64,000 nt of DNA from Maricaulis sp. (GCF_048268525.1 NZ_JBLWVH010000018.1:9083-73082), one strand, 5' to 3'; shown: positions 32,490 through 55,111, counted from the stretch's first letter. A program made the numbers and translations. The notes: a model not told the origin generated them from the letters alone.

Positions 32490-34190
32490 ATGACCAAGAC
32501 CAATCTGACACGCCGGACCGCCCTGATCGGGGCTGCGGGCGCCGGCCTCGCCGTATCCGCCTGTTCGCAGTCGCCGGACGTGTTCCATCCGGTCGAGAAT
32601 GGCAGCTTCAACCATGGCGTGGCCTCCGGTGACCCGGACCAGTCCAGTGTCATGTTGTGGACAGCCCTGACCGATGATGGTGGCGGTTATCGCGGTGTCG
32701 AAGTGGCGCGGGATGAGGGCTTTACCGATATTGTGTTCGAGCAGGGTGACTCGATCGCCTATGTGACGGTGCAGCCGCTCGGAACCTTGAAAATCCTGGC
32801 CACCGGCCTCGAGCCGGGTGCGACCTACTATTACCGGTTCCGGTTGAACGACGAATACTCACCGGTCGGCATCACCCGCACCCTGCCCGAAGGCGCGCTG
32901 GATCAATACCGGATTGGCGTCTTCTCCTGTTCCAATTTCCCGGCCGGGCATTTCAACGTCTATCGGGAAGCCGCCGAGAATGGCGATCTCGATCTGGTCG
33001 TGCATCTGGGTGACTATTTCTACGAATACGGGGCCGGCCAGTATGCGACCGGAAATTCCGAGGCGATGAACCGCGTGCCCGCACCGGTGCACGAAATCAT
33101 CAGCCACGCTGACTACGTCGAGCGCCATGCCCAGTACAAATCCGATCCGGACCTGCAGGCCCTGCACGCAGCGGCTCCCTGGATCATCAGCTGGGATGAT
33201 CACGAAACCGCCAATGATGCGTGGCGTGACGGCGCCGAGAACCATGACGAGGGCGAGGGCGCATGGGCTGACCGACGGCAGGCGGCACTTCGCGCCTGGT
33301 ATGACTGGCAGCCGGTCCGCGAGCCGGATGGTGATTTGCGCCAGCGGCGCGGGCATTTCGAGATCGGTGATCTGGCCACGTTGTGTCTGCTGGAAAGCCG
33401 CCTGATTGCCCGTGATGAGCAGGTCGGGCTCGATTCCTTCCCGCTGGCCTCCGATGCCGACGAGACGGATCCGGCCAATCTGGAAGCCGTCGCGGCCTGG
33501 AAGCGGGACGTGATCGGCGACGAAGACCGGACCTTGCTGGGCGGCGAGCAGATCAATGATATCCAGGCCGCCTGCGGTGCCTCCAAGGCAGCCGGCAAGC
33601 CGTGGCGCATCCTTGCCAACCAGGTCATCATGAGCCGCGTCGACTTCCCCAACTTTGCCACGGAAATGCCCGGCTGGCTGCGTTGGTGGGCAACGCGCAA
33701 CAATGAGTTCGCCCGCAATTTCATCATGAGTACGCGGTTTGGCGTCCCCTTCGGTCTCGACATGTGGGACGGCTACCCGGCGGAACGCGAGCGGCTCTAC
33801 GCGGCCTTGCGCGAGGTCGATGCCGACATCATCACCATCACCGGCGATGTGCACTCCTTCTGGACCAATGACCTGGTCGATGGCGACGGCACCCGGATCG
33901 GCACCGAACTGGTCGCGGCCTCGGTGACCAGCCCGTCCCCGTTCTCGAGCTTCAAGGCGCCCGGCGTTGACTACGGCCAGATGATGATCGACGCGAACGC
34001 CGATGTCGGCCACTGCAACATGGAAGATCACGGCTATATCCGCCTGACCCTGACACCCGACGCGGCCGACGCTGAATACATCAAGGTCAGCGACATTCTC
34101 ACGCGGGACTATCGGGCCGGTATCGAGAGCCAGTGGCGGGTGCGTCCGGCGGTCAATGGTGAGGTTCCTGCGGTTGAACGAGTTGGTTGA
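32490..34190 (+). CDS. phoD: alkaline phosphatase D family (PhoD), Tat-exported
   Basis: Tat signal TRRTALIGAAGAG...SAC; PhoD metallophosphatase motifs (GDYFYEYG, WDDHETAND). Confidence 0.9.
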   Translation: MTKTNLTRRTALIGAAGAGLAVSACSQSPDVFHPVENGSFNHGVASGDPDQSSVMLWTALTDDGGGYRGVEVARDEGFTDIVFEQGDSIAYVTVQPLGTLKILATGLEPGATYYYRFRLNDEYSPVGITRTLPEGALDQYRIGVFSCSNFPAGHFNVYREAAENGDLDLVVHLGDYFYEYGAGQYATGNSEAMNRVPAPVHEIISHADYVERHAQYKSDPDLQALHAAAPWIISWDDHETANDAWRDGAENHDEGEGAWADRRQAALRAWYDWQPVREPDGDLRQRRGHFEIGDLATLCLLESRLIARDEQVGLDSFPLASDADETDPANLEAVAAWKRDVIGDEDRTLLGGEQINDIQAACGASKAAGKPWRILANQVIMSRVDFPNFATEMPGWLRWWATRNNEFARNFIMSTRFGVPFGLDMWDGYPAERERLYAALREVDADIITITGDVHSFWTNDLVDGDGTRIGTELVAASVTSPSPFSSFKAPGVDYGQMMIDANADVGHCNMEDHGYIRLTLTPDAADAEYIKVSDILTRDYRAGIESQWRVRPAVNGEVPAVERVG

Positions 34191-34515
34191 GGCGGGTGCC
34201 AGACGCGGGTGGCAGCATGCCCGACTGGTCGGACAGGCTGTTTTGGTAGGTCACCCAGAAGTCGATCATTTCAGGCCAGATCCGATCGATGAGGTCGATC
34301 GCCAGGCCGTGCAGTTCTGCTGACCGTCGGGCGTTGGATAGCACCGCCTCCTGACGGTTGGCATCGACGACAGCAAGGTTTGACGACGACTTCAGTCGCG
34401 CCGCCCGGGTCACCAGGCGGTGCCGCCGGGCCAACAGGCTGACCAAGGCCGCGTCGACGGTGTCTATTTCCTGTCGGACACGATCAAGCGGAGACCGTGT
34501 CATTGCGTCGACCAT
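34153..34515 (-). CDS. chorismate mutase (AroQ class, cytoplasmic)
   Basis: LDRVRQEIDTVDAALVSLLARRHRLVTRAARLK...VVDANRQEAVL matches the AroQ helical-bundle consensus; 16-nt overlap with the upstream ubiV stop. Confidence 0.8.
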   Translation of the reverse strand: MVDAMTRSPLDRVRQEIDTVDAALVSLLARRHRLVTRAARLKSSSNLAVVDANRQEAVLSNARRSAELHGLAIDLIDRIWPEMIDFWVTYQNSLSDQSGMLPPASGTRLNQLVQPQEPHH

Positions 34516-35399
34516 TCCATCCCGGGTCGCCCGCCGAGATATCCGTTGATCACGGGGCGGTCGAGTACATCGGCTTTCAGCGCATTCTTGAGCTCCAAAG
34601 GAGCGATTTGATCGTCTAGAAAATGCCGGAATGCTGCGGCGACCCGAACCATGTCAACCGAATGTGGTGACAGACGCACCGCGGCGATGCCGGCGCGCCG
34701 CAGGTCGAACGAGGGTGTCGTCGCCAGGTGAACGCCGTCGGACAGGGTCTGCAAGCCGTTAAAGGCAAGGAACGGGGCGCCGTCGACAGTGCTGACAGTT
34801 TTTCCGTCCGGGTCTTCTTCACAGAAATAGCGGCAACTGTCCTTGTTGAGGCTGTGAAAACGCGCGTGGTAGCAGCGACCGGAATGTGCCAGTGGCAATC
34901 GACCAAAGCCGAACACCTCTATCGGCATGTCCGGGCGGGCGGCATGGACGGCGCGGATCGCAGCGAGTGACATTTCAACCGGCGGGCACCAACGTGTACA
35001 GCCTTCATCCTGTAGCGCAGCGAGGGCGGTCTCGTTGTAGATGTTGAGCATCGGGCCTGCTGTGAAAGGCCTTCCATTTCTCGCGGCCAGCGCGCCGATA
35101 TCGTTGACCTCGATTTCGGCGTCAAAGGTGGACAGGGATGCGGTGGCGCTTCTTTCGCGCTTGTTGGTCGGCGAGCAAAGCGTCGACCAAACCACTGTTT
35201 TGCCGGCGCGTTCCAGCCGCTCCGCGGCATCCACCAGCGTGGATTCCACGAGCGGGCTGCGCTTGCCGCACACAACCTCGCCAACGTACACGCGATCGAT
35301 GACGGATTCGTCGGCAATGCGCGCGTAGAAATCGGCCAGGGTCTGGACCGGCCAATTGAAAAACAGGGGGCCGAGCGTGAGTTCAATGGGAGCGGTCAT
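34500..35399 (-). CDS. ubiV: U32-family ubiquinone biosynthesis protein UbiV (O2-independent hydroxylation)
   Basis: U32 peptidase-family fold; Cys pattern C...C-x12-C-x3-C (GRCYHARFHSLNKDSCRYFC); N-terminus ELTLGPLFFNWP; ATGA overlap with ubiU. Confidence 0.8.
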   Translation of the reverse strand: MTAPIELTLGPLFFNWPVQTLADFYARIADESVIDRVYVGEVVCGKRSPLVESTLVDAAERLERAGKTVVWSTLCSPTNKRERSATASLSTFDAEIEVNDIGALAARNGRPFTAGPMLNIYNETALAALQDEGCTRWCPPVEMSLAAIRAVHAARPDMPIEVFGFGRLPLAHSGRCYHARFHSLNKDSCRYFCEEDPDGKTVSTVDGAPFLAFNGLQTLSDGVHLATTPSFDLRRAGIAAVRLSPHSVDMVRVAAAFRHFLDDQIAPLELKNALKADVLDRPVINGYLGGRPGMEWSTQ

Positions 35400-36397
35400 C
35401 GCCACGTCTTCCTGTAAGCGCCGGTTGTCGACCGGTGCCCCTCCGTCATGTGGTCCAAGGCCGCGGCTTGCGACACGCAATTGCTATCTCCTGCTTGCAG
35501 CCGATCGATGGCGTTGCGAAACTCCCGGGTGACCCGTTCGACATAGGCCTTTCCGCGTTGGCGCCCTTCGATTTTCAAGGCTGTGACCCCCGCATCGGCG
35601 AGCTCGGGAAGGACGTCGAGCGTATTCAGACTGACCGGGTCCTCGAACAGGTGCGCTGTCTGGCCGCCTGCACTGAACTTGCCTTTGCACAAGGTCGGGT
35701 AGCCGATTGGTTTGTTGTGGTTTTCGCGTTGAATGGTGAGGCCTGACAGTCGCGCTGACTTGTACTCGGCATCGCGGGTGTAACTGACAGCCTCTGCTGG
35801 CGAGCAGACGCCCGACAGGTTGGGTGACCGCCCGGTGACGAAAGACGACAGGTGGCAGCGCCCTTCGGTCATCACGCACAGGCCGCCGAACGCAAAGGCT
35901 TCAATCTCGACATTCACCTCAGCGGCGAGGTTGCCGATTTCGGGAATGCTGAGAATGCGCGGTAAAACCACGCGTTTGACGCCAAAGCGGCGGGCGTAGA
36001 ACTCGACCGCCTCGGCAGTCCCGGCAGCGGCCTGAACGGACAGGTGGAGGCGCAGATCGGGATAGCGCTCTGCCGCATGGTCAAGCACACCGATATCGGC
36101 GGCGACGATTGCGTCCGCGCCCGCCTCCCGGGCGCAGCGAACAGCATTTTTCCACGGCCCTGTATGCCCTGCGGCTGCGAATGTATTGATGGCGACAATG
36201 ACGCGGGCGCCGAACGCATGGGCAAATTCGACGGCGTCCCTCAGCTCGGCTTCGGAGAAGTTGAGACCAGGGAAGTTGCGGGCATTGGTTTCGTCACGCA
36301 GGCCGCAGTAAACGGTGTCCGCACCCGCGCGAATTGCCGCCTTGAGTGTTGCCGGTGTGCCGGCCGGTGCCACCAGTTCGAAGGGGGGAGGCTGCAT
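35396..36397 (-). CDS. ubiU: U32-family ubiquinone biosynthesis protein UbiU (O2-independent hydroxylation)
   Basis: ELVAPAGTPATLKAAIRAGADTVYCGL U32 N-terminus; four conserved Cys (GGLCVMTEGRC...GVC...TLC). Confidence 0.82.
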   Translation of the reverse strand: MQPPPFELVAPAGTPATLKAAIRAGADTVYCGLRDETNARNFPGLNFSEAELRDAVEFAHAFGARVIVAINTFAAAGHTGPWKNAVRCAREAGADAIVAADIGVLDHAAERYPDLRLHLSVQAAAGTAEAVEFYARRFGVKRVVLPRILSIPEIGNLAAEVNVEIEAFAFGGLCVMTEGRCHLSSFVTGRSPNLSGVCSPAEAVSYTRDAEYKSARLSGLTIQRENHNKPIGYPTLCKGKFSAGGQTAHLFEDPVSLNTLDVLPELADAGVTALKIEGRQRGKAYVERVTREFRNAIDRLQAGDSNCVSQAAALDHMTEGHRSTTGAYRKTWR

Positions 36398-36934
36398 TCA
36401 TCGTGCTCCTTGCCGGGAGGGACCGTCAGGTCCGGCTTGTCGGGCGGACAGGATCGGAAGAGCCAGGGGGAGAAGATCGGCGAGTGTCAGCTCGGCCTCT
36501 TCCAGGGCATTGCGCAAGCCGACAATCAGGCTGGTGTCGCCTTCGATCCACAGGTCGTTCGAGAAAAAGACCGCATCGCCGTCTTCGCGACCTTCGAAGA
36601 CATTGATCAAGGTCCGGATCGGCGCCTCAATCCTCGCATCACTCGGCCGGGGGGCGCGGCAGGCGATGGCCCGGACACGCGGATCGAGTCCTCCCAGCGA
36701 GATCTGGAAGCTGACAGGCATGTCCGTTGGCGCGATGCAGACGGTCCGGTGTTGCGACAGGTCCATCCGGTCAAAGACATCGGGCCGCTTGCGGAGGATC
36801 CGACGCAAGGCGGCCGACAGTCCCAGTGACAGCGGCAACAGCATGACGCCGCATGCGCTCTGAACGAGGCTCGAGTGCACGTCCTGCAGGCTGGGCAGAC
36901 GAGGGCGGGCGTGGACGTTTCGTCGGGCTGGCAT
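36398..36934 (-). CDS. ubiT: SCP2-domain ubiquinone biosynthesis accessory protein UbiT
   Basis: DGDAVFFSNDLWIEGDTSLIVGLRNALEEAEL aligns with the E. coli UbiT/YhbT segment DPDTLFFQRRLVIEGDTELGLYVKNLMDAIEL; directly abuts ubiU; alternative start at 36970. Confidence 0.75.
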   Translation of the reverse strand: MPARRNVHARPRLPSLQDVHSSLVQSACGVMLLPLSLGLSAALRRILRKRPDVFDRMDLSQHRTVCIAPTDMPVSFQISLGGLDPRVRAIACRAPRPSDARIEAPIRTLINVFEGREDGDAVFFSNDLWIEGDTSLIVGLRNALEEAELTLADLLPLALPILSARQAGPDGPSRQGAR

Positions 36935-37001
36935 GGTTTGGGAATCTCTATGGGAGCTTTGACGTTTCACGCCCTTGTCACCTCATCGATACACTCACTA
37001 A

Positions 37002-37015
37002 TTGATAATTATCAA
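37002..37015. promoter_or_regulatory. perfect FNR/FixK-type box TTGAT-N4-ATCAA upstream of ubiT
   Basis: ttgataattatcaa palindrome; about 70 nt upstream of the ubiT ATG at 36934, between the folE terminator and ubiT. Confidence 0.65.
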
Positions 37016-37085
37016 GTCTTGGAGATGCGACAAACGCGCACATCGAACAGGCTGCAAGGGCTGTGAAAGGCCTGACCAACACGCA

Positions 37086-37120
37086 ACAAAAAGCCCCGCA
37101 GCCTGGCTGCGGGGCTTTTC
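37086..37120 (-). terminator. rho-independent terminator of folE (bidirectional-looking hairpin)
   Basis: gccccgcagcc-t-ggctgcggggc perfect 11-bp stem flanked by A5 upstream and T4 downstream on the + strand. Confidence 0.8.
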
Positions 37121-37142: not shown

Positions 37143-37760
37143 TCAGGCGCGTTCGAGCAGGCGCATGAAGCGATCTTTCAGATCGCGGTCATTGCGGAAT
37201 TCGCCGGTGAAGGTGGTGGTGATGGTCGAGACATTCGGGTGGTGCACACCGCGCGTGGTCATGCACTGGTGCTTGGCGTCGACCAGCACGGCGACGCCGC
37301 GCGGTTCCATCGCCTCGGTCAGCGCGTCGGCGATCTGGGCGGTCATCGTCTCCTGCGTCTGCATGCGCTTGGAGAAAATTTCCACCACGCGGGCAATCTT
37401 GGAGATGCCGACCACGGCTTTAGACGGCAGATAGGCGACATGGGCCACGCCCATGATCGGGGCGAGGTGGTGTTCACAATGGCTCTCGACATCGATATTG
37501 GTCAGCATGACCATGTCGTCATAGCCCTGCACGTCCTCGAAGGTCTTGCCGAGTGCCTTGAGCGGGTCGGCGTCATAGCCGGAGAACCATTCCTCATAGG
37601 CCTTGACCACGCGCTTGGGCGTGTCGAGCAGGCCCTCACGGGTCGGATCATCGCCGGCCCAGGAGATCAGGGTCCGTACGGCGGCTTCGGCTTCTTCGCG
37701 GCTTGGCTTGGTCTTGGAGGCGGCTGCCAAGCGGGCAGCGTCAGGGGTCATGGCGTCCAT
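37143..37760 (-). CDS. folE: GTP cyclohydrolase I FolE
   Basis: [21 protein letters not shown] active-site motif. Confidence 0.95.
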
Positions 37761-54022: not shown

Positions 54023-55111
54023 ATGGCTATCGAACCACGCGCCGGCATTCTGGATATACGCCCCTACAAGCCGGGTTCGTCCGAGGCGCCGGGCATTGAA
54101 AACCCGGTCAAGCTGTCCTCCAACGAGAATGCGCTGGGTTGTTCGGACAAGGCGGCAGCCGCGATGACGGCGACGGCGTCGAAGCTCCATCTTTACCCGG
54201 ATGGTGGCGCCACCAAGCTGCGCGAAGCCATCGCCGCGGCTGAGGGCCTGGAGGCGGAGAACATCGTTTGCGGCACCGGCTCGGATGAACTCCTGCAGCT
54301 GCTCGGTCGGGCCTATCTCAATCCCGGCGACAAGGTCGTCCAGTCGCAGTACGGTTTCCTGGTCTACCGTTTGGTGGCCATGCAGTGCGGTGCCAATTTG
54401 GTGTCCGCGCCAGAGCGGGACTATCGCTCGGATGTTGATGCCATCCTCGAAGCGGCCGGTGACGACACCCGCATCGTCTTCCTGGCCAATCCCAACAATC
54501 CCACCGGCACCTATATCTCTGACGCTGAAGTACGCCGTCTGCGCGACGGGTTGCCCGCATCGACCTTGCTGGTCCTCGACGCTGCCTATGCCGAGTTTGT
54601 CGATAATCCTGACTATGATTCCGGGATCGCGCTGGCCCGGGAGCGTGACGATGTGATCGTCACGCGCACCTTCTCCAAAATCCACGGTCTGGCGGCGCTG
54701 CGCCTTGGCTGGGCCTATGGCAACAAGGCAATCATTGACGTGCTGCACCGTGTGCGCGGCCCGTTCAACGTCAACATGGCGGCCATCGAAGCCGGAACCG
54801 CGGCGATCCAGGACCGGGACTTCATGAAGCGCTCGGTCGACCACAATGAGGAATGGGTTGCCTTCCTGCGCCAGCAGATTGGCGGTCTCGGACTGGAAGT
54901 GACGCCCAGTGTCTGCAACTTCGTGCTGATCCACTTCCCGGAGACACCCGGAAAGACCGCCGCCGATGCCGATGCCTATCTGACGTCGCAGGGCCTGATC
55001 ATCCGGGCCGTTGACCCGTATGGCCTGCCCAATGCCCTGCGGGCCACGGTCGGAAGCGAAGCCGAGAACCGGCGCCTGGTCGACGCCCTGTCGACCTTCA
55101 TGAAAGCCTAG
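54023..55111 (+). CDS. hisC: histidinol-phosphate aminotransferase
   Basis: Class II aminotransferase; PLP lysine motif TFSKIHGLAALRLGWA. Confidence 0.92.
   Translation: MAIEPRAGILDIRPYKPGSSEAPGIENPVKLSSNENALGCSDKAAAAMTATASKLHLYPDGGATKLREAIAAAEGLEAENIVCGTGSDELLQLLGRAYLNPGDKVVQSQYGFLVYRLVAMQCGANLVSAPERDYRSDVDAILEAAGDDTRIVFLANPNNPTGTYISDAEVRRLRDGLPASTLLVLDAAYAEFVDNPDYDSGIALARERDDVIVTRTFSKIHGLAALRLGWAYGNKAIIDVLHRVRGPFNVNMAAIEAGTAAIQDRDFMKRSVDHNEEWVAFLRQQIGGLGLEVTPSVCNFVLIHFPETPGKTAADADAYLTSQGLIIRAVDPYGLPNALRATVGSEAENRRLVDALSTFMKA

Follow-up and report, generated by a model that had tools for sequence, protein, structure and literature searches.

Why should a gene for chorismate mutase overlap the last gene of an operon for anaerobic ubiquinone (UQ) synthesis? 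The question is raised by a 64,000-nucleotide stretch of the genome of Maricaulis sp. (GCF_048268525.1, NZ_JBLWVH010000018.1:9083-73082; G+C 63.6%), hereafter the window, in which ubiT, ubiU and ubiV are followed on the minus strand by a gene for an AroQ-class chorismate mutase (CM; 34153-34515). An earlier note, made from the sequence alone, had proposed that this CM supplies the oxygen donor used by the UbiU/UbiV hydroxylases. From comparative analysis, we consider it probable that the enzyme is a dedicated supplier of prephenate to UbiU/UbiV.

The chemical rationale comes from E. coli, where a ΔpheA ΔtyrA strain is unable to synthesize UQ anaerobically unless rescued by the CM domain of PheA alone or by added prephenate, and where 18O labelling traces all three UQ hydroxyl oxygens to the C4-O of shikimate/prephenate (Ferizhendi 2024, PMC10990095). 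The premise of the earlier note, that prephenate is the oxygen donor for UbiU/UbiV, is therefore published, and because this role has been shown in E. coli, a private prephenate source is the simplest reading of a CM gene that is overlap-coupled to ubiV.

Genes and junctions of the operon

On the minus strand, folE, its terminator and a TTGATAATTATCAA box are followed by ubiT (36398-36970), ubiU (35396-36397), ubiV (34500-35399) and the CM gene, an order and a set of identities that the earlier note had read and that curated models bear out. UbiT, an SCP2-domain accessory factor, reaches 65.3 bits on NF047962 (cut-off 46.9) and 27.3 bits on PF02036 (cut-off 21.3). The U32-family [4Fe-4S] hydroxylase subunit UbiU scores 500.1 bits on NF047963 (cut-off 440) and 197 bits on PF01136, and UbiV, the second U32-family [4Fe-4S] subunit, scores 345.3 bits on NF047965 (cut-off 275). 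The CM matches PF01817 (CM_2) with 64 bits against a threshold of 27. The four-cysteine Fe-S motifs that had been noticed in both hydroxylase subunits align with those of E. coli. In UbiU, which is 50% identical to its E. coli counterpart, C174, C181, C198 and C237 correspond to C169, C176, C193 and C232, while C44, C176, C189 and C193 of UbiV (35% identity) correspond to C39, C180, C193 and C197 and are invariant across 14 homologues.

The genes are packed without spacing. The TGA of ubiT directly abuts the ATG of ubiU with zero gap, and the ubiU stop and ubiV start overlap as ATGA, both read directly in the sequence as previously described. The 16-nt overlap that had been assigned to ubiV and CM is real as an overlap, and its length depends on the start codon. 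The ubiV stop codon occupies 34500-34502; an in-frame ATG at 34515 yields a protein of 120 residues and an overlap of 16 nt, and a second in-frame ATG at 34503, chosen by NCBI, JGI and other gene callers, yields 116 residues and a 4-nt ATGA overlap. Both candidate starts thus overlap ubiV. The longest ubiT reading frame begins with GTG at 36970, and public gene calls begin with ATG at 36934 (178 residues), which is probably the start. The window CM is 100% identical to the RefSeq entry 'MULTISPECIES: chorismate mutase [Maricaulis]'.

Recurrence of the ubiV-CM pair and identity of the mutase

We sampled 80 alphaproteobacterial loci by a UbiV-profile scan, with one genome per GTDB species, and detected linked CMs with a hidden Markov model that combined the Maricaulis CM with its first relatives. 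The order ubiT-ubiU-ubiV is kept in all 80 loci, and a CM gene lies directly 3′ of ubiV in 20 of them: five of seven Maricaulis, both Hyphobacterium and all eight Brevundimonas loci, one Maricaulaceae metagenome-assembled genome (MAG) and four Caulobacteraceae, Caulobacterales or unclassified MAGs. All 20 of these CM genes start before ubiV has ended, with an overlap of ATGA, GTGA or TTGA in 13, of 8 nt in one and of 16 nt in six, two of which also offer a start at −4, like the window. The neighbourhood comparison proposed in the earlier note therefore recovers an overlap-coupled pair in several genera. No further CM-like open reading frame (ORF) is found in approximately 1 Mb of flanking sequence (±10-kb flanks) or elsewhere in the 64-kb window. 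A linked CM is absent from the sampled loci of Phenylobacterium, Asticcacaulis, Caulobacter, Roseibium/Labrenzia, Pseudovibrio, Pelagibius, Rhodospirillaceae, Geminicoccaceae and the M. virginensis clade.

In the UbiV tree, CM-bearing loci occur only in the Maricaulales/Caulobacterales half, and their patchy spread there fits an old acquisition of the CM gene followed by losses. The CM is the fastest-evolving member of the operon, with a mean identity of 39% compared to 64% for UbiV, 72% for UbiU and 53% for UbiT. Pairwise identities show that its divergence follows that of UbiV, UbiU and UbiT (Spearman 0.88, 0.82 and 0.76, respectively), a correlation that is partly due to the shared species phylogeny. 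Judged from these identities, the CM gene is co-inherited with the operon. Fusions of CM to a U32 protein do not occur among the long HMMER matches, which are P-protein, T-protein, DAHP-synthase, AIR-synthase and TetR fusions instead, and the top 120 UbiV homologues carry PF01136 as their sole domain.

The Maricaulis CM has diverged strongly: on its own it drew only two proteins in a word-indexed homologue search and, with HMMER run in full against 1.84 billion representatives, only four matches below 1e-10. Because single-sequence searches were too weak for so divergent a protein, we switched to UbiV-anchored loci and a profile of 20 CM sequences, which retrieved only 38 proteins from 5.8 billion, and inspected the genomic context of six of the 38. 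The four strong matches among these (P0275, P0284, P0292 and P0287; 92-131 bits; all metagenomic) lie in ubiT-ubiU-ubiV-CM operons with a 4-nt overlap. The two weak ones (P0298 and P0302; 50-57 bits) lie in ffh-CM-rpsP-rimM-trmD-rplS clusters, an arrangement of CM between ffh and rpsP that we take to be the usual one for the alphaproteobacterial housekeeping enzyme, as in S. meliloti pheAa. P0298 and P0302 exceed the cut-offs of both NF006691 (149-154 bits) and TIGR01795 (118-144 bits) and are, by these scores, genuine housekeeping CMs of Alphaproteobacteria.

The window CM lies behind ubiV, not between ffh and rpsP-rimM-trmD-rplS, and falls below the cut-offs of all three models concerned: it reaches 33.8 bits on TIGR01795 (cut-off 107.55), 38.8 bits on NF006691 (cut-off 120) and 50 bits on NF005475, the PchB-type isochorismate lyase model (cut-off 126). 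More broadly, the highest score of any ubiV-linked CM on the curated CM, PchB and 'CM-like' models is about 56 bits. Because no curated cut-off is reached, in contrast to the housekeeping enzymes that exceed those of NF006691 and TIGR01795, we regard the ubiV-linked CMs as a separate, uncurated AroQ subfamily, known so far only behind ubiV.

Despite this divergence, the catalytic apparatus is recognizable. The window CM aligns with positions 1-79 of the 80 in the Pfam CM_2 profile (E = 1.5e-17) and carries no signal peptide. Its AlphaFold2 model (mean predicted local distance difference test score 87.9) contains helices at residues 5-40, 48-65 and 69-94, followed by about 25 C-terminal residues predicted to be disordered. 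The best matches in the PDB are 1ECM and 5VHT (target-normalised template-modelling score 0.88-0.91; root-mean-square deviation (rmsd) 1.2-1.4 Å), with PchB at an rmsd of at least 2.6 Å, so that the predicted fold is a three-helix AroQ bundle like that of E. coli CM. R10, R27, K38, D47 and R50 are invariant in the 20 ubiV-linked CMs and correspond to R11′, R28, K39, D48 and R51 of E. coli CM, whose catalytic roles are established in the literature on 1ECM. The equivalent of Q88 is Q87 in the window and Gln or Glu in the other ubiV-linked CMs, both of which are known catalytic solutions among AroQ enzymes. In the 1ECM structure, Asp48 binds the 4-OH of chorismate. Its invariant equivalent here, which is Ala in PchB, argues for chorismate as the substrate, and from the modelled fold and the retained residues we infer CM activity for the window protein.

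Some 10 residues past the AroQ domain, the C-terminus of the Brevundimonas-type enzymes bears the conserved motif (A/S)CCGC (loci L033, L039, L058, L059, L063, L074, L079 and L080, e.g. L058:6903-7235, and also profile matches P0272-P0284). The motif is absent in Maricaulis and Hyphobacterium CMs. Such a group of three cysteines on a dimeric enzyme hints at the binding of a metal or an Fe-S cluster, or at a docking site for the Fe-S hydroxylase.

Promoter region and a proposed private prephenate supply

The box TTGATAATTATCAA (37002-37015) matches the FNR/FixK consensus TTGAT-N4-ATCAA exactly and is the sole exact match within the 64 kb (chance expectation 0.04; an exact box arises in four of 100 shuffles). 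Its centre lies about 74 nt 5′ of the called ubiT ATG, and an exact box, TTGATAAATATCAA, precedes ubiT in five other Maricaulis loci. Across alphaproteobacterial ubiT upstream regions, 35 of 74 contain a box with at most one mismatch, whereas 400-nt background stretches of those loci have one in 2.5% of cases. Further upstream lies folE (37143-37760, minus strand; GTP cyclohydrolase I; PF01227, 247 bits), a neighbour outside the operon. Its intrinsic terminator (37085-37119, minus strand) stands between folE and the ubiT promoter region and consists of a GC-rich hairpin followed by a U-tract, UUUUUGUU; folding gives −30.2 kcal/mol (z = −4.86), and none of 200 shuffles is as stable. Both the exact FNR consensus and the folE terminator ahead of it had been pointed out in the earlier note. 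A simple consensus scan of this region found no sigma-70-like −10/−35 pair and overlooked the folE terminator that folding confirmed.

FNR activates ubiTUV in E. coli, and a survey of Pseudomonadota places candidate FNR sites 5′ of 87% of 1566 ubiTUV triplets, mostly before the first gene in same-strand architectures (ISME J 2024, PMC11707229). The conserved box in the window is real but not novel, since sites of this kind ahead of ubiTUV have been in print since 2024. In Maricaulis, the operon would be under FNR control. Because the same survey reports ubiTUV in 1562 genomes across Pseudomonadota, the presence of an anaerobic UQ pathway in this lineage, which had been called notable, is unremarkable, and we reject the view that it stands out.

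Two variations of the promoter region accompany this picture. Maricaulis virginensis (L009 and L010) and L046 keep ubiT-ubiU-ubiV with neither a linked CM nor an FNR box (the best match has four mismatches), which shows a recent loss or rearrangement inside the genus. Six Phenylobacterium loci (L019, L020, L026, L028, L034 and L037) share a conserved variant box 5′ of ubiT, TTGATGATCGGCAA, with two mismatches in the right half-site, which may be a site for a different CRP/FNR-family regulator.

In the mechanism that we propose, ubiT, ubiU, ubiV and CM would form a four-gene operon, presumably a single transcript, under its own FNR/FixK-type promoter. UbiT, UbiU and UbiV would carry out the three O2-independent ring hydroxylations of UQ synthesis, and the CM, a small cytoplasmic AroQ paralogue with an accessory role, distinct from the alphaproteobacterial housekeeping enzyme, would be translated in step with UbiV from its overlapping start. 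It would convert chorismate to prephenate, the oxygen-atom donor for UbiU/UbiV, of which three molecules would be consumed per UQ. Co-expression would thereby sustain a local pool of prephenate at low oxygen and decouple its supply from the flux and feedback state of Phe/Tyr synthesis. As a possible refinement, the CM might hand prephenate directly to the hydroxylase, which is plausible because prephenate is labile. The central idea of the earlier note thus gains support from the recurrence in 20 of 80 loci, the correlated divergence from UbiV and the distinct subfamily, with the function itself deduced from these comparisons.

Three other accounts of the gene deserve consideration. It could be the ordinary housekeeping CM for Phe and Tyr, adjoining ubiV by chance and without a tie to UQ. 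In its favour, the gene encodes an AroQ CM whose catalytic residues are intact, and the 64-kb Maricaulis window contains no second CM; yet two orders, with four or more genera between them, retain the overlap-coupled position, the subfamily has so far been found solely behind ubiV, and the window CM fails the housekeeping models, whose members sit in ffh-rpsP clusters. Moreover, were this the sole CM, cells making Phe and Tyr aerobically would rely on an anaerobic FNR-type promoter, and M. virginensis, which has ubiTUV without a linked CM, would have to own another CM if it is prototrophic. We therefore hold a housekeeping role to be very unlikely indeed. It is distinctly unlikely that the protein is an AroQ-fold enzyme with another part in quinone synthesis, either a PchB-like (iso)chorismate pyruvate lyase or a CM that feeds 4-hydroxybenzoate (4-HB), from which the ring is made, via prephenate and 4-hydroxyphenylpyruvate instead of providing the oxygen donor. 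Among solved structures, PchB does share first place by sequence, the NCBIfam isochorismate lyase and 'CM-like' models score on a par with the CM models although none reaches its cut-off, some members bear the JGI name isochorismate pyruvate lyase, and the variable equivalent of Glu52 is Val or Ile in Brevundimonas, as in PchB. However, the Asp48 equivalent that PchB replaces with Ala is invariant, the model superposes better on 1ECM (1.2 Å) than on PchB, the score on NF005475 is less than half its cut-off, and 4-HB is required by the aerobic and anaerobic routes alike, yet the gene is tied to ubiTUV specifically.

The remaining account is that the CM serves chiefly as a fourth subunit of UbiU-UbiV, which would bind chorismate or prephenate and present the labile donor at the active site, with bulk prephenate output secondary. 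The start/stop overlap in all 20 genome loci and in all four metagenome contexts suggests translation matched to that of UbiV; CM sequences change quickly, in parallel with the rest of the operon; its C-terminal tails are lineage-specific, including (A/S)CCGC in the Brevundimonas type; and UbiUV activity has never yet been reconstituted in vitro. Nevertheless, E. coli and the majority of other lineages do without a partner of this kind, and the full retention of catalytic residues implies that catalysis is under selection. We hold a chiefly physical role to be unlikely.

Several observations, in addition to the phylogenetic component of the divergence correlation, weigh against a dedicated prephenate supplier. 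Sixty of the 80 sampled ubiTUV loci have no linked CM, and neither does E. coli, in which yhbW follows ubiV, so that a dedicated CM is dispensable for the pathway in general. The Brevundimonas-type CM-bearing operons contain no box with at most one mismatch at intergenic positions, even further upstream; placing CM on the same anaerobically induced transcript as ubiTUV, as had been suggested, would therefore hold for Maricaulis only. A second, housekeeping CM would be expected in the Maricaulis genome, and none is present in the 64-kb window or in the ±10-kb flanks. By sequence alone, PchB scores as high as true CMs. Finally, Glu52 of E. coli CM contacts the C4-hydroxyl, though this residue is not universal among AroQ enzymes. 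Its equivalent is Gln in the window and Asn, Glu, Val, Ile or Ala in the orthologues, and given this variability the kinetics or specificity of ubiV-linked CMs may differ.

The gene slot after ubiV and relation to known systems

Across the 80 loci, the gene that comes after ubiV varies with the lineage, and the alternatives exclude one another. Besides the 20 loci with CM, 13 loci of Phenylobacterium, Caulobacter and Alsobacter (L019, L020, L023, L024, L026, L028, L034, L037, L043, L054, L056, L066 and L071; e.g. L028:6897-8111) carry a DAO-type FAD oxidoreductase (PF01266, 162-173 bits) that overlaps or abuts the ubiV stop, 18 Roseibium/Labrenzia loci carry a conserved ORF of about 128 residues (e.g. 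L065:6876-7259 and L053:6867-7265), and five Asticcacaulis loci carry NnrS. The overlap of the Roseibium/Labrenzia ORF with the ubiV stop reaches 27 nt. This ORF encodes the motif LIEQIHRELxxLDMPCxCK, matches no Pfam or NCBIfam family and may be a further case of a fourth ubiTUV gene specific to one lineage. There is as yet no in vitro UbiUV assay or reconstitution of a U32 hydroxylase, and the electron acceptor is unknown (PMC10990095); the DAO-type flavoprotein is a candidate for that acceptor.

A pyridoxal 5′-phosphate (PLP)-dependent group II decarboxylase of about 589 residues (PF00282) also recurs, directly 5′ of ubiT (L085:1805-3574, L087:1799-3574, L014, L015, L044, L058, L063, L074, L079 and L080) or just after CM (L033 and L039). 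It is present in 10 of the 20 CM-bearing genome loci compared to one of the 60 loci without CM. Its best NCBIfam match is tyrosine decarboxylase (205 bits, cut-off 905), and it may have to do with the aromatic by-products left when prephenate is consumed. Many CM-bearing operons lie in denitrification or nitric oxide-response clusters, either as norB-nnrS-DUF454-decarboxylase-ubiTUV-CM or followed closely by nnrS or a gene for a nirK-type copper protein, and the loci of the strong profile matches are likewise often among norB, nnrS and related genes. Because CM-bearing loci in such clusters (L085-L090, L095, L052, L055, L068, L074, L079 and L058) have no TTGAT-N4-ATCAA box, their regulation probably differs from that in Maricaulis. 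One could imagine the position after ubiV as an 'accessory slot' into which lineages inserted different missing components for UbiU/UbiV, namely the DAO flavoprotein, the 128-residue protein or a CM that may bind the hydroxylase and channel the labile donor to it as a genuine fourth subunit, with the PLP enzyme perhaps removing the aromatic by-product; we regard this as a tentative and rather unlikely generalization. If true, these operons spell out a parts list for the in vitro reconstitution of prephenate-dependent hydroxylation.

Downstream in the window, the operon is limited by a convergent phoD-like phosphatase gene (32490-34190, plus strand; PF09423, 336 bits), whose 3′ end overlaps that of CM by 38 nt (34153-34190). 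This leaves no space for a terminator between the two genes, and overlapping phoD/CM 3′ ends are also present in other Maricaulis contigs (L001 and L098). Elsewhere, hisC (54023-55111, plus strand; TIGR01141, 313 bits) neighbours phaR, the acetoacetyl-CoA reductase gene phaB, a gene for HMG-CoA lyase and ftsE. Partial NCBIfam scans of the window from 44 to 62 kb revealed no aromatic-pathway gene (no tyrC or pheA near hisC) and no second CM, and exact-protein look-ups for the window ruvB and hisC returned no recorded match.

So far, the evidence that prephenate serves as an organic oxygen donor comes from genetics and isotope labelling in E. coli (PMC10990095). A conserved ubiV-coupled CM subfamily lends this chemistry independent comparative-genomic support, and the ubiV-CM operons point to organisms in which donor supply is hard-wired to the hydroxylase. 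They also define an AroQ subfamily that databases name generically 'chorismate mutase' or wrongly 'isochorismate pyruvate lyase', and they raise the question of why some lineages keep a private prephenate source, for example during denitrification, given that many of these operons lie among nor, nnrS and nirK. As the earlier note had supposed, we found no paper on the ubiV-CM linkage in the full-text literature, subscription papers being outside its scope. Publications that connect UbiU/UbiV or U32 proteins with CM or prephenate (the 2024 PNAS, RlhA and TrhP papers) discuss no gene linkage, the main text of PMC11707229 mentions neither prephenate nor CM, and the supplements examined contain no linked CM. 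The fourth gene and the CM subfamily thus appear undescribed, although the ubiTUV genes and their FNR site are already known.

Compared with solved and curated AroQ enzymes, the window CM is closest in structure to the CM domain of E. coli PheA (1ECM), of which it keeps R11′, R28, K39, D48, R51 and Q88. It is only 29% identical to that domain, carries Gln in place of Glu52 and, in contrast to PheA, is neither fused to prephenate dehydratase nor equipped with a known feedback domain. It has the AroQ fold in common with the isochorismate-pyruvate lyase PchB (2H9C/2H9D), whose sequence scores similarly (28 bits), but PchB lacks the Asp48 equivalent, and the window CM stands among UQ hydroxylases rather than salicylate or siderophore genes. 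The housekeeping CMs of TIGR01795 (CM_mono_cladeE) and NF006691 are likewise small cytoplasmic AroQ proteins of about 100 residues with the catalytic Arg/Lys/Arg, from which the ubiV-linked CMs differ by the variable Glu52 position and by their C-terminal tails.

At the level of the operon, the box in the window does not differ from the FNR sites of PMC11707229, being an exact consensus 5′ of the first gene of a same-strand triplet. The window also shares with the UbiTUV systems of E. coli and P. aeruginosa (Pelosi 2019, PMC6747719; PMC10990095) the same three proteins, the same Fe-S cysteine motifs, the position of ubiV after ubiU and an FNR-type site upstream. In E. coli, however, ubiT is divergent from ubiUV and yhbW follows ubiV, whereas the window has a same-strand triplet with CM. 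Likewise, E. coli obtains its prephenate from the CM domains of PheA and TyrA, which are encoded elsewhere, while the Maricaulis operon has a stand-alone CM as its fourth gene.

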